DNA from: an uncultured Vicinamibacterales bacterium
Lineage (GTDB): Bacteria > Acidobacteriota > Vicinamibacteria > Vicinamibacterales > JAHECP01
Reading direction: 5' to 3'
Length of the DNA: 53,043 nucleotides
Assembly (NCBI GenBank): GCA_964478975.1
Contig: CAYZKQ010000002.1
Span: forward strand, 1-53,043
Part shown: positions 15,151 to 45,938 of the stretch, piece by piece
How positions within the stretch are numbered: position 1 is the first letter of the stretch
Layout of the letters: every line of letters begins with the position of its first letter
The notes under the pieces: model-generated
Told to the model about the DNA's origin: nothing
The model's database searches: none
What the model saw: the letters and a program-made list of their open reading frames with translations, nothing else
Made by a program: the position numbers and the translations under genes

Positions 15151-15849
15151 CTACATCATCGCCAGAATCTCGAGGGCCTTCCGGTCCAGCACGACAAAGC
15201 CGTCTTTCTCGGTGCGGACGACGTCCTGCTTGCCCCACCGGCTCATGATGCGGATGCAGGTTTCGATGGTGGTGCCCGTCATGTCGGCCAGTTCCTGGCG
15301 CGAGAGGGGCAGGGGAATGAACACGCCGCCGCGCTCCGGGCGCCCGCGCTCGTCCGCCAGCTTCAGGAACAACCGCGCGAACCGCGGTTCGACCCGCCCG
15401 CCGGTCAGCTCGGCCATGCGGTTGGTCAGCTCGATCAGGCGGTGCGTCAGGCCGAACAGCAGGCCCCGGACGAGCGACGGGTGCCGCTCGAGCAGCTCGA
15501 AAAAGGCCTGGCGGGGAACCTGGAGGCAGGTCGTGTCTTCGAGGGCCACGGCCGAGGCCGGAAACGGCTTGCCCTCGTAGGCGGCCACCGCCCCGAACGG
15601 GTCGCCCGGCCCGAACACTTCCAGAATGACATCCTTACCCGACGGCGTGGCCTTGACGATTTTTACCCGCCCGGCAGCGATGTAGTAGAAGCAATCGGAG
15701 GGCGAACCTTCTTCGAAAATGACCTCGTTCCGGGCGTAGGTCTTGACCCGAGACACGCTCGCCAGCCGGGTCCGGTCCTCAGGCGCCAGCCTCCGGAACA
15801 CCGGCGTCGTCCGCAGCAACTCCTCGGGGGTCGGGAGCACGTGCCCCAT
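15151..15849 (-). CDS. Crp/Fnr-family transcription regulator (no FNR-type N-terminal Cys cluster)
   Basis: It has a cNMP-binding fold (FYYIAAGRVKIVK...GPGDPFG) and a C-terminal HTH (SRQELADMTGTTIETCIRIMSRW). Confidence 0.9.
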   Translation of the reverse strand: MGHVLPTPEELLRTTPVFRRLAPEDRTRLASVSRVKTYARNEVIFEEGSPSDCFYYIAAGRVKIVKATPSGKDVILEVFGPGDPFGAVAAYEGKPFPASAVALEDTTCLQVPRQAFFELLERHPSLVRGLLFGLTHRLIELTNRMAELTGGRVEPRFARLFLKLADERGRPERGGVFIPLPLSRQELADMTGTTIETCIRIMSRWGKQDVVRTEKDGFVVLDRKALEILAMM

Positions 15850-28763: not shown

Positions 28764-29600
28764 TCAGATATCGACCTTCCGGAGGCGGCGCGCCGCGAGG
28801 AGGGGTGGGACGAGGGTCCACACGAGGAGGGAGAGGCCGATCAGGACGGCCGCCCCAGCCGGGCCGCGGGTGAAGCGGAGGAACGCGAGCGACGCGGCGC
28901 CGAAGGCCGCCGTCCCCTCGATGGCGAGCAGAGCGCCGGTGCGCACGGCGTCGACGGGGTTGACCAGGACCGCCGCGATCAGGAGGCGCGAGGCCGTCCC
29001 CGACCGCAGCAGTGACGCCACCCCGAGCGCCGCGATGTCGAAGACCACGACGGCGGCGAACCAGATCACGAGCGCGATGGCCAGCGCGCGCGTGCGGCGG
29101 CGGCCGAACTGACCCGCGGCCACGAGGGCGGCGACGCCGAGGAAGATCGCGGTCAGGATGACGGCGCCCGCCACGACCCCCAGGAACCCTTCGAGCCCCC
29201 AGTCGCCGGCGCCGGCGAACACCACGACGCCCGCCGCCCCGAACCCAATGGCCTGCGCCGAGACGAGCGCGGCGAACAGGCCGGCGAGCTTGCCCGCCAG
29301 GATGGTGGCGCGCGGGACGGGTTGCGAGTAGAGCAGCTCGGCGGCCCCCCGGTCCGGCGTCAGTTCGAGCACCCCGAACAGGAGGGCGGCCAGGGGGACC
29401 AGGAGCAGGACGAGCTGCACGAGCGACGCGGCCGTCCGGGCGAAGTCCTGCATGCCGCTGCCGCCGGCCAGGATGTAGCCGGACGAGGCGACGAGCAGCG
29501 CGAGCGCGGCGAACACCACGGAGAAGATCTGCAGCCAGCGCGACCGCACCGCGAGGGTGAGCTCCTGGCGCGCGCACAGCCACAGCCGGCTCATCGTCAT
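28764..29600 (-). CDS. nosY: NosY, ABC-2 type permease of the nitrous-oxide reductase maturation system
   Basis: It is a six-TM ABC-2 permease with an ATGA overlap with nosL and sits in nos context. Confidence 0.85.
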   Translation of the reverse strand: MTMSRLWLCARQELTLAVRSRWLQIFSVVFAALALLVASSGYILAGGSGMQDFARTAASLVQLVLLLVPLAALLFGVLELTPDRGAAELLYSQPVPRATILAGKLAGLFAALVSAQAIGFGAAGVVVFAGAGDWGLEGFLGVVAGAVILTAIFLGVAALVAAGQFGRRRTRALAIALVIWFAAVVVFDIAALGVASLLRSGTASRLLIAAVLVNPVDAVRTGALLAIEGTAAFGAASLAFLRFTRGPAGAAVLIGLSLLVWTLVPPLLAARRLRKVDI

Positions 29601-30121
29601 CGCCCCCGGGGCGGGCCGGCCGGCCCGAACAGGTCGTGTACAGCGACCACCTCGCCGCGTCGCGCGGCGGCGTCTGCGTCGCGGGACGCGCGGTCGGCGT
29701 GCGCCACGAGCCCCGAGTTCATCGGGGTCGCCAGGCCTTCCACTCTCGAATACACAGCGTCAGCGGCCACGACCCACGCCCCCGTCCGGTGGTCCGCGAC
29801 GTACGCGACGGCGCGCGGCGGCTGGTCCGGGTGCGCCGAGAGATACGCGCGCAGGCAGCCGAGGTCGTCGAAGAAGATCGGTTCCTCGCCCGGCGCGACG
29901 ATCTGCGCCGCGAAGTGGACGTCGGAGACCATCATCCGGCACTGCGCGCAAGTCGTGTGCTGCGGGTCGAGGGTCGCCGGCGGTGGCGGACCGCTCGTGC
30001 ACGCCGCCAGCGACGCGGTCAGGATCGCAGGCAAGACGCGCGCGGCGCGGCGGCCCCGAGAATCAGGGCGGGTCCGGAGCGGGGGATGGCGGATCAGGTC
30101 GCGGGCGGCGTCAGGGGTCAT
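29597..30121 (-). CDS. nosL: NosL copper-chaperone lipoprotein
   Basis: It has the lipobox LTASLAAC and the motif CAQCRMMVSD, followed by the conserved FDDLGC. Confidence 0.85.
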   Translation of the reverse strand: MTPDAARDLIRHPPLRTRPDSRGRRAARVLPAILTASLAACTSGPPPPATLDPQHTTCAQCRMMVSDVHFAAQIVAPGEEPIFFDDLGCLRAYLSAHPDQPPRAVAYVADHRTGAWVVAADAVYSRVEGLATPMNSGLVAHADRASRDADAAARRGEVVAVHDLFGPAGPPRGR

Positions 30122-31052
30122 GGGGATCCTCCGGGGGCGAGCCGTTCTTGGCGTCCCTGGCGTCGCCGACCAGCTCGCGGTACAGCGCGTCCAGCCGGCC
30201 TTCCTCCGCCGTCAGGCCTCGAATCTCGGCGCCGGCGGCCCGGACGAGGTCCAGGATCGCGGGACGCTGGGAGGCCGGGCCGGGGACGAAGAGTTCGCCG
30301 GCGATCCAGCGCGTGCCGGGCGCGCGGCGCTCGAGGTCGGCGAGCAATCCGTCCGGAAGCCGGTCGAGCCGCACGCGCATGAGGCCGCGGTCGGCGAGCC
30401 GCGCGCTGAGCTCGGCCTGGCTGAGCGTCGCGACCAGGCGGCCCTCCACGAGGATGGCGAAGCGGTCGGCGAGCCGCTCGGCGTCGCCCATCTGGTGGGA
30501 GCTGAAGAACACCGTCGCGCCCGCGCGCCGGCGCGCGTCGATCAGGCCGTAGAAGGCGCACAGGCCCTCGGGGTCGAGGGCGGCCGTCGGTTCGTCGAGC
30601 AGGAGCACGGGCGCCTCGGGCAGGACGGCGACGGCCAGGCCGAGGCGCTGGACCATGCCGCCGGAATAGGTCCCGACGGCGCGGTCGGCGGCGCCGTTGA
30701 GCGACGCGAAGCGGAGGACCTCGTCCACGCGGGCGGCGGGCGCCCCGCGGAGGGCCTGGTAGAACTCCAGGACCTCCCGGCCCGACAGCGACTCGGGAAA
30801 CGCGACCTTCTGGGGCAGAAACGACACGAGGCGGCGGGCCTCCGGGTCGGCCGCCGGCCGGCCGGGTCGGCCCAGGTGCACCTCGCCGGTGGACGGGCGG
30901 ACCAGCCCTGCCGCGGCCTTGATCGTCGTGGTCTTGCCCGAGCCGTTCGGGCCGAGGAGCGCCACGACCTCGCCGGGGCCGACCTCGAGGGTGAACGCCT
31001 CGACGGCTCGCTGCTCGCCGTACCGCTTCCCGAACCCGGTGTAGCGGATCAT
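30111..31052 (-). CDS. nosF: NosF, ABC ATPase
   Basis: Walker A GPNGSGKTT, signature YSGGMVQRL and Walker B LLLDEP are present. ATG 31052 overlaps the nosD stop (ATGA). Confidence 0.9.
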   Translation of the reverse strand: MIRYTGFGKRYGEQRAVEAFTLEVGPGEVVALLGPNGSGKTTTIKAAAGLVRPSTGEVHLGRPGRPAADPEARRLVSFLPQKVAFPESLSGREVLEFYQALRGAPAARVDEVLRFASLNGAADRAVGTYSGGMVQRLGLAVAVLPEAPVLLLDEPTAALDPEGLCAFYGLIDARRRAGATVFFSSHQMGDAERLADRFAILVEGRLVATLSQAELSARLADRGLMRVRLDRLPDGLLADLERRAPGTRWIAGELFVPGPASQRPAILDLVRAAGAEIRGLTAEEGRLDALYRELVGDARDAKNGSPPEDPHDP

Positions 31053-32443
31053 GGTCGGCCAGCGCGTCGGCTTCGGCGGCGCGGCCGGCGCCCGGCGCCG
31101 AGCACGGCGAGGCCGCCGAGCCCCCAGAGCCCCGAGACGACCATCGCGGCCGGTCGGGCGCCCGGGCGCTCGGCCGGCATGGCCGGCCACGTCGGCGTCG
31201 CCGGGGGGCGCGCGCGCGGGCGCGTGTCCACGATGGGGCGCGGGTCGATGACGGGGAAGGCGCGCTCGGCGACGCCGAGCGCGGCGGCGGCGAGTCCCTG
31301 CGCGAAGAGGTCGGCCGCCGCGAGGTTGCCGCGAAGCTGGTCGAAGACGCTCGACAACCGGTACGGGCGGTCCGCATAGCCGTCGCCGTCCAGGTCCGGC
31401 TCGTCGTGGTCCGACCAGTAGTTGCCGACGAAGGCGGTGTCGGTCCGCCGCACCGTCGTGAAGAGCGGCGAGAGGTTCGCCACGAACACGTTGTCCTCGA
31501 CGCGGTGGCCGCCGGCTATGTCGTAGAGCACGATGGCGACGTCGGACTTGGCCACGAGGTTGCGGCGCAGGATGACGCGGTAGGAATCCTCGATGAACAC
31601 GCCCCGGGCGTTGTCGGCGATCAGGTTGTCCTCCGCGACCACATCCTCGCACGTCTTGAACAGCAGGCCGACCGAGGCGAATCCCCGGTTGCGCACGAAG
31701 CGGTTCCGGCGGAACACGATCCGCTTCGAGTACATGATGGCCGTCCCCGCGTCGCCGTTCTCGAAGGTGTTGTCCTCGAACGTGTTGTCGTCCGAGAACA
31801 TGTAGTGCAGCCCGTACCGGAGGTCCCGCGCCCGGTTGCCGGCGACGAACCCATGAGGCGACGACTGGATGTAGAAGCCGTCGCGCACGTCGGCGATGTC
31901 GTTGCCGGTCAGCCGGAACCCGTCGGTGTTCCACACGTGCACGCCCGACCCTTTCTCGCCGGGCAACTTCCCGGGGATCCCGCGGATCGTCACGCGGTCG
32001 ACCGTGGCGCCGTGCGCCTCCCGCAGGTACACGCCGAACAGCGTGTTCCGGATGCGGCACCGCCGGATCGTGACGGACCGCCCGGTGACGTGCACGCCCG
32101 CCGGGTCGCGCCCGAGGTCGCCGCCGCCTTTGCCGTCGATGTCGAACCCTTCGACCGTCACGCGGTCGGCCCGGACCCGGACGACGCTCCCGGTGCCCGA
32201 GCCCACGAGCCGCGGCCAGCCCTCGCCGACCAGACGCAGCGGCTTGTCGATCACGAGGTCGCCCTCGTACACGCCGGCGCCGACCACCACGGTCTCGCCC
32301 GGGGCGGCCCGGTCGACGAGCGTCTGGAGCGGCGAGGTCTGGGCGGGTGCCGGCCGGCCCTCCACGGTTCCCGGGGGCGGCGCGGGGACCCCGCCGGTCA
32401 CCTGCGCCAGAGCGACCGCGAGCAGCACGCTGGTCACGGTCAT
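31049..32443 (-). CDS. nosD: NosD, periplasmic right-handed beta-helix (CASH) protein
   Basis: It has a signal peptide and repeated parallel beta-helix motifs (NTLFGVYL, DGFYIQSS, YGLHYMFSDDNTFEDN, ARGVFIEDS), in nos context. Confidence 0.9.
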   Translation of the reverse strand: MTVTSVLLAVALAQVTGGVPAPPPGTVEGRPAPAQTSPLQTLVDRAAPGETVVVGAGVYEGDLVIDKPLRLVGEGWPRLVGSGTGSVVRVRADRVTVEGFDIDGKGGGDLGRDPAGVHVTGRSVTIRRCRIRNTLFGVYLREAHGATVDRVTIRGIPGKLPGEKGSGVHVWNTDGFRLTGNDIADVRDGFYIQSSPHGFVAGNRARDLRYGLHYMFSDDNTFEDNTFENGDAGTAIMYSKRIVFRRNRFVRNRGFASVGLLFKTCEDVVAEDNLIADNARGVFIEDSYRVILRRNLVAKSDVAIVLYDIAGGHRVEDNVFVANLSPLFTTVRRTDTAFVGNYWSDHDEPDLDGDGYADRPYRLSSVFDQLRGNLAAADLFAQGLAAAALGVAERAFPVIDPRPIVDTRPRARPPATPTWPAMPAERPGARPAAMVVSGLWGLGGLAVLGAGRRPRRRSRRAGRP

Positions 32444-32476
32444 GTCAGCCCCCGGCCTGCCGCCGGCCCCCGGAGC

Positions 32477-33121
32477 CTACCCGCTCCGGCTCGCACCCTG
32501 CGTTCGCCGCGCCTCCCGCCACGCCAGGACGACCGCCAGCACGAGCGCCGCGAACACGCCCAGCATGACATAGGTCCCCGCCTGGGGATACGAGTAGACC
32601 TGGAAGTTCGCGATCTGCTTGAAGCCGAACACGGGCGGCATGAACGGGTCCACCTTGACGGCGGCCGTCGGCGACAGGTTGTGTCCGTACTGGTAGAGCT
32701 TGTAGGCGAACGACCAGAGCGAGAACGCCCCGAAGTAGACGAACAGGATCAAGACGTCCACCAGGCTGCCGACGTTGCCGTGGACGGCCGCCCGCAGGCA
32801 GAGCAGCGCCAGGGCGCCGATGACGAAGGGCATCCACTTGAACTCGGTGAAGTCCTCCTCGACGATGTCGCGCATGCCGATGTAGTGGTTGAGGACGTTG
32901 ATCTCGCGGATGTCCCGCCCCTCGCGGCCCCCGGCGAAGGTGTGGCTGTAGATGTCGAGGCGCAGCCCGTCGGGGTACTGCGGCGCGAACATCGTCAGGT
33001 TCCAGAGGGGGAGGACGTAGGTCAGGGCCAGGGCGAGGGCGGCGGCGACGAGCAGCGTGCGGGGGGCGAGGCCGAAGATGTGATCGAGAAACCGGCTGAC
33101 GGAGAGGAAGAAGGTGCGCAT
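32477..33121 (-). CDS. nosB: NosB-like membrane protein (clade-II nos-specific gene immediately downstream of nosZ)
   Basis: It is a 214-aa polytopic membrane protein in the position and orientation typical of atypical nos clusters. The assignment rests on context. Confidence 0.6.
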   Translation of the reverse strand: MRTFFLSVSRFLDHIFGLAPRTLLVAAALALALTYVLPLWNLTMFAPQYPDGLRLDIYSHTFAGGREGRDIREINVLNHYIGMRDIVEEDFTEFKWMPFVIGALALLCLRAAVHGNVGSLVDVLILFVYFGAFSLWSFAYKLYQYGHNLSPTAAVKVDPFMPPVFGFKQIANFQVYSYPQAGTYVMLGVFAALVLAVVLAWREARRTQGASRSG

Positions 33122-33157
33122 GGGACTGACCTTGTTGGACAATTCCCAACCCCCGGC

Positions 33158-33192
33158 GCGCGGCCCGGCGGGACGCCCCGGCCGGGCCGCGC
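33158..33192 (-). repeat. Perfect 11-bp inverted repeat (13-nt spacer): intercistronic stem-loop between nosZ and nosB
   Basis: gcgcggcccgg (33158-33168) pairs with ccgggccgcgc (33182-33192), and further GC pairing is possible inside the spacer. No U-tract follows. Confidence 0.5.
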
Positions 33193-33219
33193 GGGGTGGC
33201 ACGGGTTGCGGGGGTGGGC

Positions 33220-35082
33220 CTACCGCGGCCGAACGACCATGTAGCCCTGCATCTCCTGGTGCAGCGCCGAGCAGAAGTTCGTGCAGTAGTACGGGAACAC
33301 CCCCGGTTTGTCGACCGTGAACGTCACGGTCTTGGTTTCGCCCGGGTCCACCACGATGTTGATGTTGTAGTCGAGGATGGCGAACCCGTGCAGTTCGTCG
33401 GTCGTCTGCTCGATGTTCGTCACCGCGACGGTCACCTCGTCGCCCTGCCGGACTTCGAAGTCGGTCGGCGTGAAGGTCGACCGCACGGCGATCATCTTGA
33501 CGATCACGCGGTTGCCCTGGCGCGTGACGCCCGCGTCCTTGACGTCCCACACGGCGAGCGGGTGCTTGTTCTCTTCTTTCGGGTACACCTCGATGGGCTT
33601 CAGCTTGTCGGCCTTGATGATCTGCGCGTAGTGGGGCTCGGGCTCGGTGAACGAGTCGTAGAGCAGCTTCATCTTTTCCTCGCTGATGTCGACGAGCTGC
33701 GAGGATTCGGGCTGCGAGGGGCCGACCGACAGGTGGCGTCCGTGCGAGAGCTTGTTGAGACCGACGAGCCACTTGCCGTCGGGGCTGACCGTGTCGCCCT
33801 CGGCGGCCGCCAGGTGCCCGATCGAGTAGGACATGGGCACCTTGTCGACGACCTCCCAGGTGCCCAGCTTCCACTTGGCGATGGCGCTGTCGACGAAGAG
33901 CGAGGTGTAGGCGTAGCCGTCCGGGCCGAACTGCGTGTGGAGCGGCCCCAGGCCCACGGGTACCTCGGCGTCCTTGATGGCGTCGTAGTTGAGCACCGGG
34001 ATGCCGTCTTCGTCGCCGGTGAAGTTCTTGTTACGGATCGCCGTCTGGATCTTCTCGAAGTTGAAGGCGGTCGTGACGCCCTGGAGCTTCCCGGACCCGA
34101 TGATGTACTTGCCGTCGGGGGAGACGTCGACGCCGTGGGGTGACTTCCCGCAGGGCAGGAAGTACACGAGTCCCGGCACCTCTTTCGGGTCGATGACGCG
34201 CACGCCGCCGATCATCCGGCCCTTGCCCTCGGCCGCCGCCTTCTCGGCGAGGTGCCAGTCGATCATGGCGATGTAGTCGCGGTCCCGCTGGGACGCCGTG
34301 ACCTCGAGTTTCCCCGTCGCGCGCTCGGTGTTGTACGAGGTGAAGAACACGTAGCCGTCGGAGACGAGCTTGCCCGCGTCGCCGAGGTCGTAGTCGAACG
34401 GCGGCAGCACGATCTGCCAGCCGAAGGACATCTCGCCGGTCTTCGGGTCGATCTTGATGCCGGTGACGACTCCCTTGTACTCGGTCGCGTACTTGCTCAC
34501 CTCGACCGCGGTGCCCTTCGGGATCGGGATGGAGAAGCGCGACGCCATCACCGAGTACTCGGTGTTCGGCGTCACGAACGCCGAGGCGTGGTTGCCCGAG
34601 ACGTTCGGGATCGGCCCGATGATCTGCTTGACCTTGAAGTCGCGCAGGTCGATCCGGGCGATGCGCCCGTTCATGTCGTTGACGAACAGCCAGCGCCCGT
34701 CGTAGTCGCCGTTGGTCTCCGAGAGCGACGGGTGGTGGACGTCGCCCCAGGTCAACCCGCCGAGCATCTTCTTCGAGTCGTCGTCGAACCCGTAGCCCGT
34801 CGCCGGATACGGGGTGAAGACGGGGATCGTGACGATGTGGCGCATCGAGGGGATGCCGTAGACGTACACGTTCCCCGAGTGCCCGCCGGAGGCGAACATG
34901 TAGTACTCGTCGAGGTCGCCCGGCGCCACGTAGACCTTCTGTGCGGCCAGGGCGATCTCCGACACACCGGCCGCGCGGCGGCGCTCCTCGGGTGCCCGCG
35001 GCGCGCAGTACGCGGCGAGCCAGGCCAGCCCGAGGACAACGGCCGCGCTCGCCCAGACGAAGGGATGCTTGCGTGGCGACAT
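33220..35082 (-). CDS. nosZ: Nitrous-oxide reductase NosZ, clade II (Sec-type signal peptide)
   Basis: This is the last 620 codons of artefactual ORF 33220..37692. It has the CuA site CTNFCSALHQEM, beta-propeller His motifs (DVHHP, SGNHAS, SPHGVD, GPLHTQF, EPHYAQ), and the N-terminus MSPRKHPFVWASAAVVLGLAWLAA with no twin-Arg. Confidence 0.95.
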   Translation of the reverse strand: MSPRKHPFVWASAAVVLGLAWLAAYCAPRAPEERRRAAGVSEIALAAQKVYVAPGDLDEYYMFASGGHSGNVYVYGIPSMRHIVTIPVFTPYPATGYGFDDDSKKMLGGLTWGDVHHPSLSETNGDYDGRWLFVNDMNGRIARIDLRDFKVKQIIGPIPNVSGNHASAFVTPNTEYSVMASRFSIPIPKGTAVEVSKYATEYKGVVTGIKIDPKTGEMSFGWQIVLPPFDYDLGDAGKLVSDGYVFFTSYNTERATGKLEVTASQRDRDYIAMIDWHLAEKAAAEGKGRMIGGVRVIDPKEVPGLVYFLPCGKSPHGVDVSPDGKYIIGSGKLQGVTTAFNFEKIQTAIRNKNFTGDEDGIPVLNYDAIKDAEVPVGLGPLHTQFGPDGYAYTSLFVDSAIAKWKLGTWEVVDKVPMSYSIGHLAAAEGDTVSPDGKWLVGLNKLSHGRHLSVGPSQPESSQLVDISEEKMKLLYDSFTEPEPHYAQIIKADKLKPIEVYPKEENKHPLAVWDVKDAGVTRQGNRVIVKMIAVRSTFTPTDFEVRQGDEVTVAVTNIEQTTDELHGFAILDYNINIVVDPGETKTVTFTVDKPGVFPYYCTNFCSALHQEMQGYMVVRPR

Positions 35083-35114
35083 GAGTCCGCTCCTTTCCGA
35101 ATTACCTGGTCCTC

Positions 35115-36341
35115 CTACCGACCCGCGTCCGGCGGCCCGCCGGACTGCTGCTGCCGCTGATACGCGGCGAAGGCCTCCCGCAACTTCTGGATGGCGACCT
35201 GCTTCTGCTCGGGCGTCAGGACGATCTGCCGCGCGAGCACGACGGCCATCGTGCCAGTCGGCTCGCGCAGGAAGTCGTCGATCGTCCGGCCGAACCGCTT
35301 CTGCACGTCCTCGACGGCGATCGACAGGTCCGGCCCGATCTGCGCCGGACTCGTGACGCCGAAGACCGAGATCGAGTGGCAGACGAAGCAGCCGGTCGAC
35401 ACGAACCACGCGCCCGGCCCGGTCTTCATCTCCTCTTCCCGCTTGATCTCCTCGGCGGTGCGCGGCTCCGTGCGCGGCGCCCCGGCGAGATACGCCGCCG
35501 GCACCGTGACCCGCCGCCACGAGAGCACGAGCATGGCGAGAGCCTGCGCCTGCTCGGTCGTGAAGTGGAAGTTCGGCATCACGGTGTCCTGCACGAGCGC
35601 CCGCGGGTCCTTGAAGTGGGCGACGTGCCAGGCGAAGGCGGTCTTCTGGCCCGACAGGCGGCTGAAGTCGTACTGCTCGGGCGCCTTGTCCCCGACGTCG
35701 GTCAGATCGGGACCGATCGTCCCCCCGTAGCCGTTGATGACGTGGCACGCCCGGCAGCCCTTCTCGCGCACCAGGCGCTTGGCCAGATTGATCGCGTCGG
35801 CCCCCTTCGTCTCGCGGTCGTACCGGTGGCAGACGTTGCAGTTCATCTGGATGAGCGCGCCCTTGTCGGTCGCCAGCGAGTACGCCTCGCCGAGGGTGCG
35901 GCTGAGCAGCGGCTCCTCCCAGTGCGCCACCTCCCCGTGCGCCGGCCCGGTGTCGATGGCCCACCCCTGCCCGCCGTGGCAGACGGTGCAGCCGTACCGC
36001 TCGATGGGATGGATCCGGATCGGCTCGACCGGGTGCGTACGCCACGGTTCTTCGGCCGTCTCGAACCCTTTCCAGGAGACCGCCTGGTGGCACGTCTGGC
36101 ACCGGTCGGCCCGCCGGAGTTCGGGGATCCAGATCTGCTGGATCCCCGACGGGACGGCGGCCGCCTTGTCCGCGCCGAAGCGCTCGGCCACCATCTGCCG
36201 GAAACGATACTGGTAGTAGCGCCAGTCGTGCGTGCGGTCGGCCCACCAGAAGAGCACCGTGGAGGCGACGAGCACGAGGCCCACGCCCGCCAGCACGGGA
36301 CGATCGGTCGCCGGATACGGAGAATCGGTCCGCTGTTCCAT
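35115..36341 (-). CDS. Membrane-anchored pentahaem c-type cytochrome (cytochrome c subunit of the Rieske/cyt b complex)
   Basis: It has an N-terminal TM and five CxxCH motifs (CQTCH, CTVCH, CNVCH, CRACH, CFVCH). Its stop lies 32 nt upstream of the nosZ start. Confidence 0.9.
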   Translation of the reverse strand: MEQRTDSPYPATDRPVLAGVGLVLVASTVLFWWADRTHDWRYYQYRFRQMVAERFGADKAAAVPSGIQQIWIPELRRADRCQTCHQAVSWKGFETAEEPWRTHPVEPIRIHPIERYGCTVCHGGQGWAIDTGPAHGEVAHWEEPLLSRTLGEAYSLATDKGALIQMNCNVCHRYDRETKGADAINLAKRLVREKGCRACHVINGYGGTIGPDLTDVGDKAPEQYDFSRLSGQKTAFAWHVAHFKDPRALVQDTVMPNFHFTTEQAQALAMLVLSWRRVTVPAAYLAGAPRTEPRTAEEIKREEEMKTGPGAWFVSTGCFVCHSISVFGVTSPAQIGPDLSIAVEDVQKRFGRTIDDFLREPTGTMAVVLARQIVLTPEQKQVAIQKLREAFAAYQRQQQSGGPPDAGR

Positions 36342-36359
36342 CGTCGCAGTCCGCCGCGC

Positions 36360-37703
36360 TCAAATCCTTCCCGGGATCTCCGGCCAGGGTTCCCACGGCC
36401 AGTAGAAGTGCCAGTACGGCCCGCGCAGCCACAAGCCGATCACCGTCAAGATCGCCACGCCGAGCACAACGAGCAGGAACACCAGGTTCTGCCGGCGACG
36501 CGCCGCAGGCCACCACCGCCCGGCGCAGTCCGCGGGGCTCCGGTCGAGCCAGGGCCAGACCGTCAGGAGGAAGATCAGGGCGCCCGGCACGAGCACGCCG
36601 CCCAGAAAGGCCCCGTTCACGGTGAAGGACCCGACCTGCACGGTCGTGATGGTCACGAGCTCCTGGAGCCAGAGGAAGTACCAGGGCGCTTTCGCCGGGT
36701 TCGGCGTCACCAGCGGATTGGCCGGCTCTTCGAGGGGCGAGGCGATGAAGACCGACAGGATACTGACCAGGGCGAACGTGCCCAGCACCACGATGGCCGT
36801 GCGGCGGATCAGGTCCGGGACGGCGTTGACCGTCAGGGCGGGCGCCTCGACGCTCGTGGCGCGCACAAACGGTGACGTGCCGCGGGCGACCCCGAGCAGC
36901 GTGTACGTCTTCGTGGGCACGACGGGCGTCTCGTGGCGCTCGACGACCGACGCGGCGTCGGCCGCGGCGAGGCCCCCGTCCTTCCGCACCCGCCACATGT
37001 GGTAGGCGAACAACACGCCGAGCACGCCGGGCAGCAGGAAGACGTGGAGCACGTAGAAGCGGATGAGCGTGGCCTGCTCGATCGTCCGCCCCCCGATGAG
37101 CAGCTCGCGCACGGTGCCGCCGATCCCGGGGATGGACGAGGCGATGTTGGTTCCGACCGTGACGGCCCAGAAGGCCAGCTGGTCCCAGGGCAGCAGATAA
37201 CCCGTGAACGACAGCAGCAGGGTGGCGAGCAGCATCGCGACGCCGATCACCCAGTTCCACTCGCGGTGCTGGCTGGGTCCCGCGGCGTTCTTGTACGCGC
37301 CGGTCAGAAAGACGCGCACCAGGTGCAGCGCCACGGCGACGACCATCAGGTGCGCCGAGATGCGGTGCACGGCGCGGATCCACGAGCCGAAGCTCACGAC
37401 GAACTCGATGTCCTTGACCGACTGGTAGGCCCGCTCGACCGACGGGACGTAGAGGAACATGAGCGGGATGCCCGAAAGGACGAGCAGCAGGAAGAGCGCC
37501 GCCGAGACGGTGCCGAGCCAGAACGAGTAGGTCCACGCGAGCGACGGCTTCGCCACCTTCGCCGGGAACCAGTGCAGCAGCAGGTTGGCGACCACCGCGT
37601 CGCCCGCGTCGCGGTCCGACCGCGGCCGCCAGCTCCAGAACGGCTGCGGGCGCACCCCGGGGGCGCTCGGGGCCTCGGTCTGCGTCCACCACCTCATCGC
37701 CAT
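36360..37703 (-). CDS. Cytochrome b (fused b6 / subunit-IV-like) of a Rieske/cyt b complex
   Basis: WIRAVHRISAHLMVVAVALHLVRVF, LLPWDQLAFWA and FYVLHVFLLPG are present: the haem-ligand His pairs and the PEWY-region equivalent. Confidence 0.9.
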   Translation of the reverse strand: MAMRWWTQTEAPSAPGVRPQPFWSWRPRSDRDAGDAVVANLLLHWFPAKVAKPSLAWTYSFWLGTVSAALFLLLVLSGIPLMFLYVPSVERAYQSVKDIEFVVSFGSWIRAVHRISAHLMVVAVALHLVRVFLTGAYKNAAGPSQHREWNWVIGVAMLLATLLLSFTGYLLPWDQLAFWAVTVGTNIASSIPGIGGTVRELLIGGRTIEQATLIRFYVLHVFLLPGVLGVLFAYHMWRVRKDGGLAAADAASVVERHETPVVPTKTYTLLGVARGTSPFVRATSVEAPALTVNAVPDLIRRTAIVVLGTFALVSILSVFIASPLEEPANPLVTPNPAKAPWYFLWLQELVTITTVQVGSFTVNGAFLGGVLVPGALIFLLTVWPWLDRSPADCAGRWWPAARRRQNLVFLLVVLGVAILTVIGLWLRGPYWHFYWPWEPWPEIPGRI

Positions 37704-37718
37704 CGCGTCACCATCCCG

Positions 37719-38234
37719 TCAGAGGGTCAGGCGGAAGTCGTGCCCCACTTCGTCCGCCAGGTCGACCACCAGTTGCCCGTCGTCCGGAGCGATCGACAGC
37801 CGGTACCACGCGAGCGGCCGGGGCGCCGGTCCGGCCACGTTCCGGCCGTCCCCCTCGTAACGCGACCCGTGGCACGGGCAGAGGAAGCGGTGCGTCAGGC
37901 GCAGCCGCGCGCCCCCGACCTCGCGCTCGACCGGCTGGCTGAGGGCTTCGGCCCGCACCGTGCACCCCAGGTGCGTGCAGACGGCCGAAATCGCGTGGAA
38001 CGTGTTGCCCTGGCGGAAGACGAAGAGCCGCTGGTCGGAGAGGAACTTCAGCCCCTCGGGGAACTCGCTCGGGAGCCCGAGCTTGACCGTCGTGGGGGCG
38101 TCGTAGGAGACGTTGGGCACCAGCGACCGGAGCGAGGCGACCCCCTGGGTCGCGACGCCGGCGATGCCGGCCCCCAGCCCCAGCTTCATCAGGAACTCGC
38201 GCCGATCCGGCTTCGCCCGCGACGTGTCACTCAT
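37719..38234 (-). CDS. Rieske [2Fe-2S] subunit with Tat signal
   Basis: It has DRREFLMKLGLGAGIAG (Tat) and CTHLGC...CPCHGS. Its ATG overlaps the upstream stop (ATGA). Confidence 0.9.
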   Translation of the reverse strand: MSDTSRAKPDRREFLMKLGLGAGIAGVATQGVASLRSLVPNVSYDAPTTVKLGLPSEFPEGLKFLSDQRLFVFRQGNTFHAISAVCTHLGCTVRAEALSQPVEREVGGARLRLTHRFLCPCHGSRYEGDGRNVAGPAPRPLAWYRLSIAPDDGQLVVDLADEVGHDFRLTL

Positions 38235-40195
38235 GCCGCTCCAGCCTCCGCCCAGCGTTCGGTGATCGTGAAGCGTTCCATCGTCATGGCGTCGGTGGGG
38301 CAGCGGATCGCGCACAGCCCGCACCGGATGCACCGCTCGTCGTCTTTGATCATCGCGGCGAGGGGCAGCCCGCCGGCCGCCGCGCGCGCGACGAGCGCCG
38401 CCCGCGTGGCCTCGTCCAGGTCCAGCGCGTCGAGGGGGACGATCGCGAGGCAGTACTCGGGGCAGACGTCGACGCAGCGGTTGCACAGGACGCACTTCTC
38501 GGGGTCGTAGATCGTCTGGACGTGGCAGACGAGGCACCGCGCGCCCTGCCGTCTGGCCGCGGCGGCGTCGTAGCCGACCTCGACCTCGGTGATGCCGGTC
38601 CGCCGCCCGACGTCCACGGTCGGCGGCGGCTCCCGGTCGAGCTGCTCGAAGCCGGCGACCATCCGGTAGCGGCTCGTCGGCAGCTTCTCGATCTCCAGGC
38701 GGACCTCCAGCCGCGCCCCGCCGCGGGCGAGGTACTCGTGGATGGCGCGCGCCGCGCGCTTGCCGTTGGCCACGGCCTCGATGAGGTTGCGGGGCCCGAA
38801 GGCGACGTCGCCGCCGGCGAAGACGCCGGGGACCGAGGTGGCGAGCGTCACGGGGTCGACCCGGATCGTGCCGCCGGGGGTGAGGGCGAGACCGTCTTCC
38901 GGCGTGAGAAACGACAGGTCGGCCTGCTGCCCGATCGCCAGGATGCACGAGTCGGCCACCAGCGTCACGGTGTCCGCGTCGTCGTACTGCGGGTTGAACC
39001 GGCCGTCGGGGTCGAACACCGAGCGCACGCCGCGCAGCTCGATCGCCTGCAACCGGCCGTCGCCGAGGAACCGCTTCGGCCCGCGGCGCGTGACGAAGCG
39101 GATGCCTTCTTTCTTCGCCTCCTCGAATTCCTCCAGCCCCTGGGTGGTGCGCAGCACCGGCATCTCGTCGAAGTTCTCGAGGGAGACGATCGTGACCTCC
39201 GTGGCGCCGCCGCGCAGCGCCGCCCGCGCCGAATCGAGGGCTTCCTTGACCCGCGCGTCCGTCTCCGCGCCCAGCTCGCTTTCGGGGAGTCCGGCGGTCC
39301 CGGCCGCGGTCTCTTCCTGGACGGCCCGCCACGCGGTCCGCGCCGCGTCGAAGGCGACGAAGCCGCCGCCCACCACGACCACGCGGCGCCCCAGGTCCAT
39401 GCGGTAGCCGCGGTTGACGTTGATCAGGTAGTCGATCGCCTTGACGACGCCGTCGAGCGTCACGCCGGGCACCTGCAGGTCGCGCCCGCGCGAGACCCCG
39501 ACCGCCAGAAACACCGCCTCGAACCCCTCCGCCCGCAGGTGGCGCAGCCCGAACTCGCGGGTGAGCGGCGTATTCAGGCGGAGCTCGACGCCGAGGGCGA
39601 GAATCTTGTCGATCTCGGCGCGCAGGAGCGCCCGCGGCAGGCGGTACTCGGGAATGCCGAACCGCATCATTCCGCCCGGCTCGCCCGCCGCCTCGAAGAT
39701 CGTGACATCGTAGCCGAGCAGCGCCAGGTCGTGCGCCGCCGACAGCCCGGCCGGCCCCGCCCCCACCACCGCCACCTTGCGGCGGCCCGCGCGCACCGGC
39801 GGCCGCCGGTACACCGTGACGGGCAGGTGGCCCGCGTAGCGGTTGCCCTCGCCCACGTCGGCGTCGAGCAAGCGGTCCTGCGTGTCCGGGCGGATCGACT
39901 CGACGCCGTACTGCTCGGTCACGAACCGCTTCAGGGCGCGGATCGCGACCGGCCGGTCGATCGAGCCGCGGCGGCAGGCGTCCTCGCACGGCGCCGCGCA
40001 CACCCGGCCGCAGACCGACGCGAACGGGTTCGGCGCGCGCGCCACCAGATACGCCGCCTCGTCGCGCCCCTCGGCGATGAGCTGCACGTAGCGGCCCGCG
40101 TCGGTCGCCACCGGACAGCCGACCTGGCACTTGACCTGCGCTTTCCAGTGATCGAGGTCGGGCAGCCGCACCCGGAGAGGAGGCATGCGCGTCAC
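38231..40195 (-). CDS. GltD-like NAD(P)H:FAD oxidoreductase with N-terminal Fe-S Cys motifs, fused to a C-terminal 2x[4Fe-4S] ferredoxin domain
   Basis: It has CQVGCP...CGRVCAAPCEDAC, dinucleotide folds VAVVGAGPAGLSAA and VVVVGGGFVAFDAA, then GGDVAFGPRNLIEAVANGKRAA, and a C-terminal CVLCNRCVDVCP / CIRCGLCAIRCP. The start is GTG 40195, or ATG 40186 with GGAG upstream. Confidence 0.9.
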   Translation of the reverse strand: MTRMPPLRVRLPDLDHWKAQVKCQVGCPVATDAGRYVQLIAEGRDEAAYLVARAPNPFASVCGRVCAAPCEDACRRGSIDRPVAIRALKRFVTEQYGVESIRPDTQDRLLDADVGEGNRYAGHLPVTVYRRPPVRAGRRKVAVVGAGPAGLSAAHDLALLGYDVTIFEAAGEPGGMMRFGIPEYRLPRALLRAEIDKILALGVELRLNTPLTREFGLRHLRAEGFEAVFLAVGVSRGRDLQVPGVTLDGVVKAIDYLINVNRGYRMDLGRRVVVVGGGFVAFDAARTAWRAVQEETAAGTAGLPESELGAETDARVKEALDSARAALRGGATEVTIVSLENFDEMPVLRTTQGLEEFEEAKKEGIRFVTRRGPKRFLGDGRLQAIELRGVRSVFDPDGRFNPQYDDADTVTLVADSCILAIGQQADLSFLTPEDGLALTPGGTIRVDPVTLATSVPGVFAGGDVAFGPRNLIEAVANGKRAARAIHEYLARGGARLEVRLEIEKLPTSRYRMVAGFEQLDREPPPTVDVGRRTGITEVEVGYDAAAARRQGARCLVCHVQTIYDPEKCVLCNRCVDVCPEYCLAIVPLDALDLDEATRAALVARAAAGGLPLAAMIKDDERCIRCGLCAIRCPTDAMTMERFTITERWAEAGAA

Positions 40196-40312
40196 GCTCC
40201 CGGTCCCACATCATGACCGAGCGTCGGGCGCGCGGGAATGACGCTCGTCATACGCGGCCGCCAGGCGCGACCGCGCCGCGCGGCCCGCAGGCTCCGGCGG
40301 GCGCGACCAGGG

Positions 40313-40382: not shown

Positions 40383-40961
40383 TCACGCGCGCGGCGGGGT
40401 GGAGACGCCCTCGAACGGTGGCCGCTCGATCACGCGGTCCCCGTGCTGGCGCCGGAAGGTCTCCACGATGTGGCAGTTCCAGCAGACGGGCCCGTGCGTG
40501 GCGAGCACCTCGCCGAGGCGTTCGGGCGGCACGTCGCGCCAGGCCCGCGTCGGCCGCTGGGGATCCGCGAGATCCATGAGCGCCGGCTCGTGTTCCAGCC
40601 ACTCCCGCTCGCCGACGGGCCGGCCGCAGAGCAGACACGTCTTGCCGTCGTACCAGCGGGCCACGATCGAGCGGATCAGGCAGCCGTCAGGCGCCGCGAG
40701 AATCTGCTCGAGACACGCCTGGCCGCAGCTCCGGCGCTCGGGCCACCGCGTGCAGTCCGCGAGCCGGAGCTCCGTGCGGCCGAGCAGCGCCGTCACCGCC
40801 GCGTGCCCGGCGTCGACCACGACCGCTTCCTGGGTCCTGGTCTCCGGGCACGTGATGAGCCGGACGCCGCGGTGCCGGACATACGCGCGGAGCAGCCACG
40901 CGACCAGCGCGCCGACCGCCGCGAGGAGCACAAGCAGGACAACGAGGAGGGTCGGGCTCAT
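40383..40961 (-). CDS. Cys-rich single-TM hypothetical protein
   Basis: The real start is ATG 40961 (MSPTLLVVLLVLLAAVGALVAWLL). The soluble part has 9 Cys, including CGQAC, CLLC and CWNC. It is co-oriented with and upstream of the bc/nos genes. Confidence 0.6.
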   Translation of the reverse strand: MSPTLLVVLLVLLAAVGALVAWLLRAYVRHRGVRLITCPETRTQEAVVVDAGHAAVTALLGRTELRLADCTRWPERRSCGQACLEQILAAPDGCLIRSIVARWYDGKTCLLCGRPVGEREWLEHEPALMDLADPQRPTRAWRDVPPERLGEVLATHGPVCWNCHIVETFRRQHGDRVIERPPFEGVSTPPRA

Positions 40962-41095: not shown

Positions 41096-41284
41096 TGCTC
41101 TGGCCAAACACCTGCGCGGCGGTGCCGGCATTCCGGCGCAGAGCGCCGGCCCCCGGGGGTGCATCGTCCATCAGCTTCGACTCGGCACCCTCCGGGACCT
41201 ATGACCCCTGTCATACGCCGCCTGGCGCGTTGTGTGGGACGCTCACGCCGCGCGGATTGCCGGAATTCCGGCGACGCTCCAGCG

Positions 41285-42346
41285 ATGGTGCACCAGAAGG
41301 TTCGGGCGCTGGTCTTGACCGCGCCGGGTACAGTCGAGTGGGGAGACGTCGAGCTGCCCGACCCCGCGCCGGGGGAAGCGCGGGTGCGGGTGGCGGGCTG
41401 CGGGCTGTGCCACACGGACGTGACGTTTTTCACGGGCGCCGTCAAGACGCGCCGCCCCCTCCCCCTGGTGCTCGGCCACGAGATCGCGGGCGTCGTCGAC
41501 GCGGCGCCGCCGCCCTACGAGGGGCTGGTCGGGCGGGCGGTCATCGTCCCGGCCGTCATCCCCTGCGGGGCGTGCGACTTCTGCCGCGCCGGGCGCGACA
41601 CGGCCTGCGCGGCGCAGGTGATGCCGGGCAACGACATCCACGGCGGGTTCGCCGAGGCCGTGGTGGTCCCGGCGCGCCACCTGGTCCCGGTGGGGGCGGA
41701 GCTCGGCGGCCTCACGCTGGCGGAACTCGCGGTCGTGGCCGATGCAGTGACGACGCCGTATCAGGCGGTCGTCCGGGCGGGGGTCGCGGCGGGGGATCTG
41801 GTTGTCGTGATCGGGGTCGGGGGGATCGGGACCTACGGGGTGCAGATCGCGCGGGCGTTCGGGGCCGAGGTGGCGGCGGTCGATATCGATCCCGAGAAGC
41901 TGGCGCGCGCGCGGACCCTCGGGGCGCGTTGGGTCTATGACGCGCGCGAGGCCGACCCGAAGGCGATCAAGCGCCAGCTCGCGGCGGAGAGCGGCGTCTC
42001 GACCGGGCGGTGGCGCATCCTCGAGATGAGCGGGACGAAGGCCGGTCAGGAGCTGGCGTGGGCGCTGCTGGGGCCGGCGGCGACGCTGGGCGTCGTCGGG
42101 TTTACGATGGAGAAACCCGAGATCCGGCTGTCGAACCTGATGGCGCTCGACGCGGCGGCGTTCGGGAGCTGGGGCTGCAGCCCACGCCACTATCCGGCGG
42201 CCGTCGAGCTGGTGCGCTCGGGTCGCGTGCAGGTGCGGCCGTTCGTCGAGTGCCGGCCCCTCGCCGAGGGGCGCGAGTGGCTGGCGGCGCAGGCGGCGGG
42301 CCGGGCGCACGCCAGACGGATCGTGCTCGTGCCGGAGGCCGGGTGA
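41285..42346 (+). CDS. had: Zn-dependent MDR dehydrogenase, probable 6-hydroxycyclohex-1-ene-1-carbonyl-CoA dehydrogenase
   Basis: GCGLCHTD, GHEIAGVV, CGACDFCRAGRDTAC and GVGGIG are present. The function is inferred from its position directly before oah and dch. Confidence 0.65.
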   Translation: MVHQKVRALVLTAPGTVEWGDVELPDPAPGEARVRVAGCGLCHTDVTFFTGAVKTRRPLPLVLGHEIAGVVDAAPPPYEGLVGRAVIVPAVIPCGACDFCRAGRDTACAAQVMPGNDIHGGFAEAVVVPARHLVPVGAELGGLTLAELAVVADAVTTPYQAVVRAGVAAGDLVVVIGVGGIGTYGVQIARAFGAEVAAVDIDPEKLARARTLGARWVYDAREADPKAIKRQLAAESGVSTGRWRILEMSGTKAGQELAWALLGPAATLGVVGFTMEKPEIRLSNLMALDAAAFGSWGCSPRHYPAAVELVRSGRVQVRPFVECRPLAEGREWLAAQAAGRAHARRIVLVPEAG

Positions 42347-42356
42347 GGAGCTGACC

Positions 42357-43442
42357 ATGACGCCGCTGAAGGACCATCGCCTCGTTGGAGACGTCCGGTA
42401 CGAATCGATTCTTTATGAGCGACGAGCGGTGCGGGACGAGCGCGGGCGTCCGGTGCCGGACCTGTACAACGCGTGGATCTGGCTGAACAATCCCGCGCAG
42501 CTCAACAGCTACACGACGGCGGCGCTGCGCGAGCTCATCCTGGCGTTCCGCGAGGCGTCGATGGATCGCGCGGTGGTGGCGATCGTGTTCACCGGGGTGG
42601 GGACGCGCGCGTTCTGCACCGGGGGCAATACCAAGGAGTACGCGGAGTACTACGCGGGCCGGCCGCAGGAATACAAGCAGTACATGCGGCTGTTCAACGA
42701 CGCCGTCACGACCATCTTGCTCGCGGACAAGCCGGTTATCAACCGCGTCAACGGCCTGCGCATCGCGGGGGGCCAGGAGCTCGGCATGGCGTGCGACTTC
42801 TCGGTGGCCTCGGACCTGGCGCGGTTCGGGCAGGCCGGACCGAAGCACGGCTCGGCGCCCGACGGCGGGTCGACCGATTTTCTGCATCTTTACGTGGGCA
42901 TCGGCCACGCCATCGAGAGCTGCACCCTGTGCGAGCACTGGTCCGCGTACAAGGCGCTCCGCCTGGGGCTGCTCAACCAGGTGGTGCCGGTGCTGCGGGA
43001 GGGCGATCGGTTCATCCCGAACCCGCTCGTCGTGACGGACCGGTGGACGGACGAGACGGGGCAGATCGTCTACGGCGAGTTCGTGAGGGGCGAGGCGAAG
43101 CAGGCGGCCGAGGCGCGCGTCAAGGCGTGCGAGGTCGACCTCGCGCCGCTCGATGCGGCGGTCGAGTCGCTCGCGACGAAGTTGCTGCTGACGTTTCCGG
43201 ACTGTCTGGCGAAGACCCTCGAGAGCCTGCGGAAGAAGAAGCTGGAGCACTGGCAGCGCAACTCGGAGACCAACCGGTCCTGGCTGGCGCTCAACATGAT
43301 GACCGAGGCGCGGGCGGGGTTCCGGGCGTTCAACGAGGGGCCGCCGGGCCGGCGCGAGGTGGATTTCATCGAACTGCGGCGGCGGCTCGCGCGGGGCGAG
43401 ACGTGGGACGAAGCGCTGTTCGAGGCGATCCATCCGAGGTAG
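42357..43442 (+). CDS. oah: 6-oxocyclohex-1-ene-1-carbonyl-CoA hydrolase (ring-cleaving crotonase, Oah/BamA type)
   Basis: It is a long (361 aa) crotonase-fold protein with FTGVGTRAFCTGGN and GGQELGMACDF, plus the extended C-terminal region typical of BamA/Oah, in benzoyl-CoA context. Confidence 0.75.
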   Translation: MTPLKDHRLVGDVRYESILYERRAVRDERGRPVPDLYNAWIWLNNPAQLNSYTTAALRELILAFREASMDRAVVAIVFTGVGTRAFCTGGNTKEYAEYYAGRPQEYKQYMRLFNDAVTTILLADKPVINRVNGLRIAGGQELGMACDFSVASDLARFGQAGPKHGSAPDGGSTDFLHLYVGIGHAIESCTLCEHWSAYKALRLGLLNQVVPVLREGDRFIPNPLVVTDRWTDETGQIVYGEFVRGEAKQAAEARVKACEVDLAPLDAAVESLATKLLLTFPDCLAKTLESLRKKKLEHWQRNSETNRSWLALNMMTEARAGFRAFNEGPPGRREVDFIELRRRLARGETWDEALFEAIHPR

Positions 43443-43446
43443 GGCG

Positions 43447-45928: not shown

Positions 45929-45938
45929 GGGAGGCGCG

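Follow-up and report, generated by a model that had tools for sequence, protein, structure and literature searches.

We identified genes for a Rieske/cytochrome b complex directly upstream of nosZ, the gene for nitrous oxide (N2O) reductase, in a stretch of 53,043 nucleotides (the window) from an uncultured Vicinamibacterales bacterium of the Acidobacteriota (contig CAYZKQ010000002.1). Four genes encode a flavoprotein that resembles GltD and NfnB, a Rieske protein, a fused cytochrome b and a pentahaem cytochrome c. An earlier note, made from the letters of this DNA, had placed the four genes directly ahead of nosZ on one strand, with one overlap and three short gaps; coordinates and family searches agree with this. 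The evidence supports one conserved module that heads a clade II nos operon. We propose, tentatively and at slightly less than an even chance, that quinol is oxidized by one NAD(P)-linked Rieske/cytochrome b complex that passes one electron to N2O and the other to NAD(P)+.

Gene content of the nos cluster

The genes of the cluster, and a sequence box in front of them, are as follows.

40239..40250, strand not assigned: palindrome TGACGAGCGTCA, a box of the Fnr/Dnr/NnrR type (TGAC-N4-GTCA), 64 nt upstream of the flavoprotein ATG
38231..40186, minus strand: GltD/NfnB-like NAD(P)(H)-binding flavin adenine dinucleotide (FAD) protein, 651 aa (Pfam, Cys and GxGxxG motifs, fold matches)
37719..38234, minus strand: Rieske [2Fe-2S] protein, exported by the twin-arginine translocation (Tat) route, 171 aa (PF00355, twin-arginine motif)
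36360..37703, minus strand: fused cytochrome b6/subunit IV, 447 aa (Pfam)
35115..36341, minus strand: pentahaem cytochrome c with an N-terminal membrane anchor, 408 aa (five CxxCH)
33220..35082, minus strand: NosZ, Sec-dependent (clade II), 620 aa (TIGR04246)
32477..33121, minus strand: NosB, a membrane protein typical of clade II nos clusters, 214 aa (homologues after nosZ)
31049..32443, minus strand: NosD (PF05048, PF13229)
30111..31052, minus strand: NosF, an ABC ATPase (Walker A motif GPNGSGKTT read in the translation; ABC_tran homologue in the same place in loci L002-L005)
29597..30121, minus strand: NosL (PF05573)
28764..29600, minus strand: NosY, an ABC-2 permease (PF12679)

Family searches match each of the five proteins from the flavoprotein to NosZ, and thus confirm their assignments. 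The flavoprotein and Rieske genes overlap by ATGA; the gaps that follow are 15 nt (Rieske/cytochrome b), 18 nt (cytochrome b/cytochrome c) and 32 nt (cytochrome c/nosZ). We count this tight, overlapping arrangement as operon structure for a four-gene complex, the genes of which are probably translationally coupled. The likelier start of the flavoprotein is the ATG at 40186, which gives a protein of 651 aa identical to a database protein (P0001). The GTG at 40195 gives the 654 aa of the earlier note, whose domains for this protein stood and whose length probably does not. Its Tat-signal Rieske protein, fused cytochrome b and membrane-anchored five-haem cytochrome c are each matched by motifs or Pfam.

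All genes from 28764 to 40186 are accounted for. NosZ scores 904 bits against TIGR04246, the model for Sec-dependent NosZ (cut-off 625), and NosB directly after it, then the NosDFYL set, make this a clade II nos cluster. No nosR-like gene is present among these genes. Also lacking, between 28764 and 40961, are nosGH and nosC1/C2, which encode a NapGH-like iron-sulfur (Fe-S) quinol dehydrogenase and small c-type cytochromes. NosB copies that are 50-72% identical lie directly after nosZ in all nosZ-linked loci of the survey described below.

Two other candidates were rejected. An open reading frame (ORF) at 32445..33149 (minus strand) had been considered as nosB, and is an Arg/Pro-rich wrong frame; the true NosB is the one listed above. 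The wrong-frame translation still gave 46-61% tblastn 'identity' in related loci, an artefact that stems from high-GC DNA being conserved. The 192-aa gene at 40383..40961 (minus strand) was considered as a member of the unit, but it has no family match and is not kept beside the cluster in any related locus.

Conserved synteny, distribution and terminal partners

The survey of related loci was seeded by the flavoprotein. With one genome per species (GTDB), the best 80 of more than 576 relatives were taken with 10 kb flanks, and their neighbourhoods were searched by tblastn with the window proteins; ORF calls in the high-GC loci are crude. The 80 loci fall into these groups.

66 loci: Rieske and cytochrome b genes within 3 kb downstream, on the same strand
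3 loci: one of the two genes seen, then the end of the contig
4 loci: a rearranged cluster (around a cbb3 oxidase), with these genes a few kb upstream
4 loci: flank too short to judge
3 loci: neither gene detected

The flavoprotein gene is therefore not a chance neighbour, given that it lies beside Rieske/cytochrome b and multihaem cytochrome c genes in 73 of 76 informative species-level loci. The earlier note had named loss of this synteny in relatives as grounds for abandoning its claim; the synteny holds. One locus in which neither gene was detected (L062) has a cytochrome c match at the upstream edge of its contig, so its Rieske and cytochrome b genes may lie past the contig end.

Carriers of the module belong to more than 10 phyla: Acidobacteriota (several classes), Myxococcota (Anaeromyxobacteraceae), Bacteroidota, Kryptoniota, Calditrichota, Verrucomicrobiota, Planctomycetota, Chloroflexota, Actinomycetota, Zixibacteria, Eisenbacteria and Omnitrophota. 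Four Vicinamibacterales contigs share the ten-gene order of the window. The order in Actinomycetota and Chloroflexota is flavoprotein, cytochrome b, Rieske.

We identified nosZ after the module only in the closest relatives, those with a flavoprotein identity of at least 54% (14 of the 80 loci, the window and L002-L005). A NosZ match in L066 was set aside as a short cupredoxin match on the opposite strand. Other contexts were found by clustering all ORFs of the loci and scanning representatives for families. In Blastocatellia, Pyrinomonadaceae and Holophagae, the module is interspersed with ccoN, ccoO, FixG and P-type ATPase genes. For example, at L072:3669-14113 (also in L062, L067, L074 and L077) ccoN and ccoO lie between the multihaem cytochrome c and flavoprotein genes, and FixG and the P-type ATPase follow. 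The module in these loci appears to be dedicated to a high-affinity oxygen reductase.

About 30 loci, mostly of Acidobacteriota, encode a protein of about 480 aa with the Cyc2 signature AxPxFAR[K/Q][Y/T]...CxxCH...PxL and a porin-like aromatic C-terminus (L080:8645-10045, L028:776-2212, L024:7834-9300 and about 28 more; e.g., AVPIFARKY..CTTCH..PKL). A gene next to it encodes a small, cupredoxin-like protein that shows a type-1 copper pattern (e.g., L080:10136-10747). This suggests that the complex in Cyc2-linked loci is tied to extracellular electron exchange with iron.

We rooted a neighbour-joining tree of the flavoprotein on an anammox-type comparison locus, L087. This locus was retrieved with the sequence of structure 9rk4 (the anammox Rieske protein Kuste4569), to which its Rieske protein is 84% identical. 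The nosZ-linked sequences form one clade, the cbb3-linked sequences one clade, and most Cyc2-linked sequences another. The flavoprotein tree is thus split by terminal partner, which means that flavoprotein and outlet have diversified together; an integral subunit should behave in this way. A module dedicated to N2O, as the earlier note had it, does not fit these data: carriers in more than 10 phyla also have cbb3 oxidase or Cyc2-like partners, and only one clade is nosZ-linked.

The flavoprotein

The flavoprotein carries Fer4_20 (PF14691, residues 21-95), Pyr_redox_2 (PF07992, 140-478) and a C-terminal 2x[4Fe-4S] domain (562-637), with an additional conserved Cys pair (C551, C554) ahead of the latter ferredoxin-like domain. 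An alignment of 28 diverse full-length members shows sixteen conserved Cys in four groups and invariant glycines (G142/G144/G147 and G273-275). The AlphaFold2 model has a predicted local distance difference test (pLDDT) score of 85.5 and Foldseek probability 1.00 to 9bov, 9n5u, 8oh5 (StnC) and 5jca (NfnI). The best fold match, 9bov (NfnABC), is the same protein as 9bp5, with one sequence, a subunit of C. saccharolyticus NfnABC; GltD-like modules that bind NADP(H), those of NfnABC and StnABC, are nearest in fold. A two-cluster domain, FAD and NAD(P) Rossmann folds and this fold match place the protein in the NfnB/GltD-like Fe-S flavoprotein superfamily.

It is not a strict GltD: TIGR01317 and TIGR01318 score 181-188 bits against cut-offs of 448-483, and all NCBIfam glutamate-synthase and other equivalog models are far below threshold. 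No gltB or formate-dehydrogenase partner was identified near the gene in the window, and no gltB in the related loci. Conserved synteny, the sub-threshold scores and the missing gltB led us to reject the flavoprotein as a chance neighbour or a true glutamate synthase subunit. It is predicted to be a cytoplasmic subunit of the Rieske/cytochrome b complex. The earlier note had also allowed reduction of free ferredoxin by the low-potential branch. This is less likely; the C-terminal ferredoxin-like domain looks like internal wiring that leads to cytochrome b.

The flavoprotein has thousands of database relatives at 75-86% identity. The nearest relatives of the source organism are metagenome-assembled genomes of Vicinamibacteria- or Thermoanaerobaculia-like Acidobacteriota. 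A scan of 1.84 billion cluster representatives gave 3,413 matches at E <= 1e-30, many of them full-length at 38-55% identity. We found no 'Rosetta stone' fusions of the flavoprotein with cytochrome b or Rieske among the relatives; the longer ones have TPR or receiver extensions. Planctomycetota-type relatives (L039:8720-11884, P0125) have an N-terminal extension of about 430 residues, with TPR repeats in P0125, and P0215 is a fusion that begins with a response-regulator receiver domain. These extensions hint at regulated variants.

Rieske protein, cytochrome b and cytochrome c

The Rieske protein is b6f-like, with a twin-arginine N-terminus (DRREFL), the boxes CTHLGC and CPCHGSRY, and PF00355. 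Its closest solved relatives, the top 2 of 59 solved matches, are the anammox proteins Kuste4569 (9rk4) and Kustd1480 (9rk3), at E of about 4e-19; full-length b6f Rieske subunits match at 5e-12 and weaker. Box II is of the 'SY' type. Across the family we counted 16 'SY' (mostly nosZ-linked), 54 'SF' and 1 'AF' sequences. Rieske proteins of the SY type have potentials of 300-350 mV, those of the SF type 200-230 mV, and the AY/GY/GF classes 120-160 mV (PMC3509893). The SY and SF types thus predict a potential of 200-350 mV for the family.

Cytochrome b matches both Cytochrome_B (58-242) and Cytochrom_B_C (327-424), and is therefore a fusion of b6 and subunit IV. Its closest solved relatives are b6 proteins (E 8e-41). 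The haem ligands H113, H127, H220 and H235 align with His86, His100, His187 and His202 of b6, and the Qo (PEWY-type) motif is AKAPWYF. Five residues past the bN ligand is an Arg, as in b6, versus the His of bc1 Qi sites. Trp62 is opposite the b6 Cys35 that binds haem cN (ci), and no Cys occurs at this position in any of 74 flavoprotein-linked cytochromes b. An ordinary Qi site is thus not evident, because both the haem cN Cys and the bc1-type His are lacking.

The N-terminus carries an NxxLH motif, the His of which (His44) is invariant in 74 of 74 flavoprotein-linked sequences. None of 52 solved cytochrome b or b6 sequences aligns with the stretch that contains it. For the Kuenenia stuttgartiensis complex Kuste4569-73, AlphaFold3 predicts an extra haem b at the cytochrome b dimer interface, held by His43 of Kuste4571, with propionates close to Arg247 of Kuste4571 and Arg511 of Kuste4570 (PMC12954380). 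His44 and R240 of the window protein correspond to His43 and R247, the extra-haem residues of that model.

The cytochrome c begins with a hydrophobic anchor and contains five CxxCH motifs and no more (residues 81, 118, 168, 196 and 318). Its N-terminal part is 26% identical to the anammox-type multihaem subunit, and a homologous multihaem cytochrome c with 4-10 haems follows cytochrome b in 53 loci. We predict that the pentahaem protein is the periplasmic wire from the Rieske protein to NosZ.

Regulation

In the window, TGAC-N4-GTCA occurs at two sites, 40239 and 41202. A looser box, T[GT]A[TC]-N4-[GA]T[CA]A, lies upstream of the flavoprotein gene in 13/16 nosZ-linked loci, often 52-64 nt from the start, and in 2 of about 58 loci that are not nosZ-linked; by our own estimate from composition, about 0.01 would be expected per locus. 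The site at 40239 is a probable operon control site, as judged from its sequence and position. The box is upstream of the flavoprotein gene, and the regulated unit thus probably starts in front of that gene. Crp/Fnr-family and Rrf2-family genes often neighbour the related loci, and the window has a Crp/Fnr-family gene at 15151..15849. A terminator scan gave no signal above chance inside the cluster; sigma-70 and terminator scans are uninformative at the 72% G+C of the window.

The second box (41202-41213) lies in the divergent region between the 192-aa gene mentioned above and an alcohol-dehydrogenase-like gene (41243..42346, plus strand). The genes that flank it may share a regulator with the nos operon.

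Proposed electron flow and alternatives

The complex would have a b6f-like core, the pentahaem cytochrome c on the periplasmic side, and the flavoprotein, with its FAD and about four Fe-S clusters, docked at the cytoplasmic face of the cytochrome b dimer. Menaquinol would be oxidized at the Qo site. The first electron would pass from the Rieske cluster through the five c haems to NosZ, where N2O is reduced. The second would cross the membrane via haems bP and bN and then, probably via an extra haem held by His44 of two cytochromes b, enter the Fe-S chain and reach NAD(P)+ through FAD. The very favourable high-potential branch would in this way pay for the formation of NAD(P)H at the expense of quinol, either replacing a normal Q cycle or running alongside one. 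We infer the association of the flavoprotein, the extra haem and this direction of flow.

The phyla involved generally use menaquinone (about -74 mV). A Rieske protein of the 'SY' type, combined with menaquinone, would leave energy for a very low-potential b branch: with a high-potential Rieske acceptor the Qo semiquinone would be very reducing, and the b chain could thus be low enough for NAD(P)+. The same argument from a high-potential acceptor has been made for anammox bacteria (PMC12954380). Bifurcation to NAD(P)+ is a reasonable hypothesis. We favour quinol oxidation with N2O and NAD(P)+ as acceptors because of the high-potential Rieske protein, structural relatives with NADP(H) sites and Fe-S chains, and the lack of an evident Qi site. 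The lack of other dedicated electron-transfer genes (nosGH, nosC1/C2, nosR) in the cluster is also counted in its favour.

Several points weigh against this proposal. The GltD, DPD and NfnI modules usually oxidize NADPH. The hosts are likely heterotrophs without an obvious need for reverse electron flow. The energetics are borderline, with about +375 mV gained in the Rieske branch against about -250 mV to NAD(P)+ plus the membrane potential. The N-terminus of cytochrome b also aligns to Geobacter ExtP, a relative without the flavoprotein (the ExtP/ExtQ cluster has no GltD-like gene; PMC2825233), and the extra haem is known only as an AlphaFold3 prediction even in anammox bacteria (PMC12954380).

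Electrons could instead run the other way, from NAD(P)H through FAD and the Fe-S chain to the b haems and a Qi-side quinone, so that the complex would be a combined NAD(P)H:quinone and quinol:cytochrome c/N2O oxidoreductase with an ordinary Q cycle. Such flow would be thermodynamically downhill, the GltD, DPD and NfnI modules among the closest folds are physiologically NADPH-oxidizing, a dihaem membrane cytochrome b that carries a flavoprotein and an Fe-S chain is reminiscent of quinone reductases, and the hosts, as heterotrophs, presumably make NAD(P)H. However, a quinone-reducing site on the N side is not evident from the cytochrome b comparisons (no haem cN Cys in 74/74, and Arg rather than the bc1 His past the bN ligand). 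The high- and mid-potential Rieske types found family-wide suit a low-potential b chain, and members of the family are found together with Cyc2-like iron-oxidase genes as well as in anammox bacteria, where the known need is to make NAD(P)H. We regard this reversed flow as somewhat unlikely. A conventional Q-cycle complex that feeds NosZ, with the flavoprotein as a valve or sensor that poises the b haems against NAD(P)(H) or drains them when quinone is over-reduced, seems to us improbable. In its favour, the core has all four b-haem ligands and a Qo motif. In some Acidobacteriota the module replaces ordinary bc complexes beside a cbb3 oxidase, where bulk respiration is expected. Nearby regulators and boxes of the Fnr/Dnr, Crp and Rrf2 types suggest use in response to redox state or NO. 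Nevertheless, a subunit of 650 aa with invariant cofactor sites, kept in more than 10 phyla and co-diversifying with the terminal partner, is costly for a valve, and the cytochrome b comparisons gave no evidence for the Qi site that a conventional Q cycle uses.

Very improbable, in our view, is a GltD-like protein that stays outside the complex as a merely co-transcribed soluble NADPH-dependent Fe-S flavoenzyme (of the glutamate-synthase type, or a ferredoxin:NADP oxidoreductase). The flavoprotein has no transmembrane segment, and homologues are named 'glutamate synthase beta subunit-like' or 'formate dehydrogenase beta subunit' in databases. Yet the equivalog scores are far below cut-offs (e.g., 188 vs 483 bits) with no gltB or formate-dehydrogenase partner nearby, and adjacency to Rieske/cytochrome b genes is kept in 73/76 informative genomes, with the ATGA overlap in the window. 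The anammox counterparts of the flavoprotein co-migrate with their complex; NAD(P)H formation is a proposal there also (PMC12954380).

Other genes in the window

Directly downstream of nosY (25285-28615, minus strand) are genes with overlapping start and stop for a 371-aa membrane protein, with weak similarity to QmoC/TcuB, and a 771-aa molybdopterin oxidoreductase. About 9 kb from the nos cluster (15989-19372, plus strand) we identified genes for an MtrA-like multihaem cytochrome (Paired_CXXCH) and, directly after it, an outer-membrane porin of the MtrB/PioB type, a porin-cytochrome conduit for extracellular electron transfer. A FeoB gene (20040-21857) comes after this pair, followed by a radical SAM/SPASM gene (22638-23789). 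The plus strand at 42357-47210, which diverges from the nos region, carries two genes for enoyl-CoA hydratases, one for a protein with a hemerythrin domain (44214-44770) and one for the D-component of 2-hydroxyglutaryl-CoA dehydratase (45819-47210). Several PAS histidine kinases and two sigma-54 activators are encoded elsewhere in the window (7194-9020, 9624-10979, 13117-14121, 49733-52369).

Significance

Synthesis of NAD(P)H by a Qo-bifurcating Rieske/cytochrome b complex was proposed for anammox bacteria more than 10 years ago and is unproven, in part owing to the difficulty of growing and manipulating these organisms. The same key residues occur in homologous complexes of ordinary phyla (including Acidobacteriota, Myxococcota, Bacteroidota, Verrucomicrobiota, Chloroflexota and Actinomycetota), and this brings the proposal within reach of cultivable and sometimes genetically tractable bacteria. 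It is possible, although we consider it doubtful, that there is a large, so far unrecognised class of quinol-bifurcating Rieske/cytochrome b:NAD(P)+ reductases in menaquinone bacteria, with NosZ, cbb3 oxidase or Cyc2/cupredoxin outlets.

If such a class exists, every second menaquinol electron in N2O respiration would be lifted to NAD(P)H and could re-enter via complex I. Such 'electron recycling' would raise the protons moved per electron that reaches N2O well above those of a normal Q cycle. How electrons reach clade II NosZ, which is the principal biological sink of N2O in soils, is still poorly defined, and the module is a concrete candidate for this path. The energy yield of this path, or a coupling of N2O to the NAD(P)H pool, bears on the reasons for the difference in behaviour between clade II and clade I N2O reducers.

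Comparison with known systems

Rieske and cytochrome b genes beside clade II nosZ were already known, as the earlier note said: several clade II clusters are drawn with Rieske, cytochrome b and cytochrome c before nosZ, the genes labelled only 'Fe-S', 'S', 'cy-b' and 'cy-c' (PMC11096178). The window resembles these known routes in its Sec-type NosZ followed by nosB and nosDFYL, and in the Rieske, cytochrome b and cytochrome c genes ahead of nosZ. Unlike the Wolinella route (NosGH-C1-C2 plus a general Rieske/cytochrome bc complex), it lacks nosG, nosH, nosC1 and nosC2. We found no description of the flavoprotein subunit in N2O reducers or nos clusters in the full-text-searchable literature, with subscription reviews outside this scope. 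Kuenenia cytochromes b have been grouped with those of Solibacter, Gemmatimonas and others, with no mention of the flavoprotein (Baymann et al. 2012). The statement of the earlier note that GltD-like subunits of Rieske/cytochrome b complexes have been described essentially only for anammox bacteria holds for the searchable literature, but their occurrence extends over more than 10 phyla.

The core shares with b6f complexes of the 'green clade' the b6 proteins as best cytochrome b relatives, the four His ligands, the Arg after the bN ligand and a b6f-like Rieske protein. In contrast to them, it has no haem cN Cys, a fused b6/subunit IV, the NxxLH N-terminal extension, a multihaem cytochrome c in place of cytochrome f and an additional cytoplasmic flavoprotein. 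The Bfu-type enzymes NfnABC and StnABC and the NfnI large subunit give the best sequence and fold matches to the flavoprotein, with a two-cluster domain and FAD/NAD(P) Rossmann folds, and in NfnABC/StnABC a GltD-like module trades electrons with a long Fe-S chain. The window flavoprotein differs in being a separate 651-aa protein with a 2x[4Fe-4S] end, encoded with genes for a membrane complex rather than with bifurcating subunits of the NuoF/HydB type.

The module as a whole is related to the anammox complexes. In K. stuttgartiensis, Kuste4569-4574 and Kustd1480-1485 are b6f-like complexes that contain a multihaem cytochrome c together with a subunit of four Fe-S clusters that is a putative NAD(P) oxidoreductase; structural relatives of this oxidoreductase (Kuste4570) are 9bp5 (NfnABC) and 5t5i (PMC12954380, 2025). 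The flavoprotein of the window therefore has the same C. saccharolyticus NfnABC subunit as structural relative (9bov here, 9bp5 there). In both types a Rieske protein, a b6-type cytochrome b, subunit IV sequence, a multihaem c that replaces cytochrome f/c1 and an FAD/four-cluster flavoprotein are encoded together. In comparison with L087, the identity is 35% over the whole window flavoprotein (E 2e-103) and 44% for cytochrome b from residue 37 on, and the Qo-region string NPAKAPWYFL is identical in the subunit IV part. The relation to the anammox NAD(P)-oxidoreductase complexes suspected in the earlier note is thus one of homology, by the Rieske matches, the flavoprotein identity and the shared cytochrome b residues.

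There are also clear differences. The flavoprotein gene comes first in the window, whereas the Rieske gene comes first in the anammox type (the order in L087 is Rieske, 580-aa flavoprotein, b6, subunit IV, multihaem c). The fused b6/subunit IV is split in L087, and W62, with no haem cN Cys, stands against the WCMGG of L087. The window flavoprotein has an insert of about 40 residues, and its cytochrome c has five haems versus six or eight. The window partner is NosZ rather than an HAO-like octahaem protein, and the host is without an anammoxosome and probably a heterotroph. The complex thus belongs to the anammox architectural family, but its NosZ partner and wide distribution appear not to have been recognised before.

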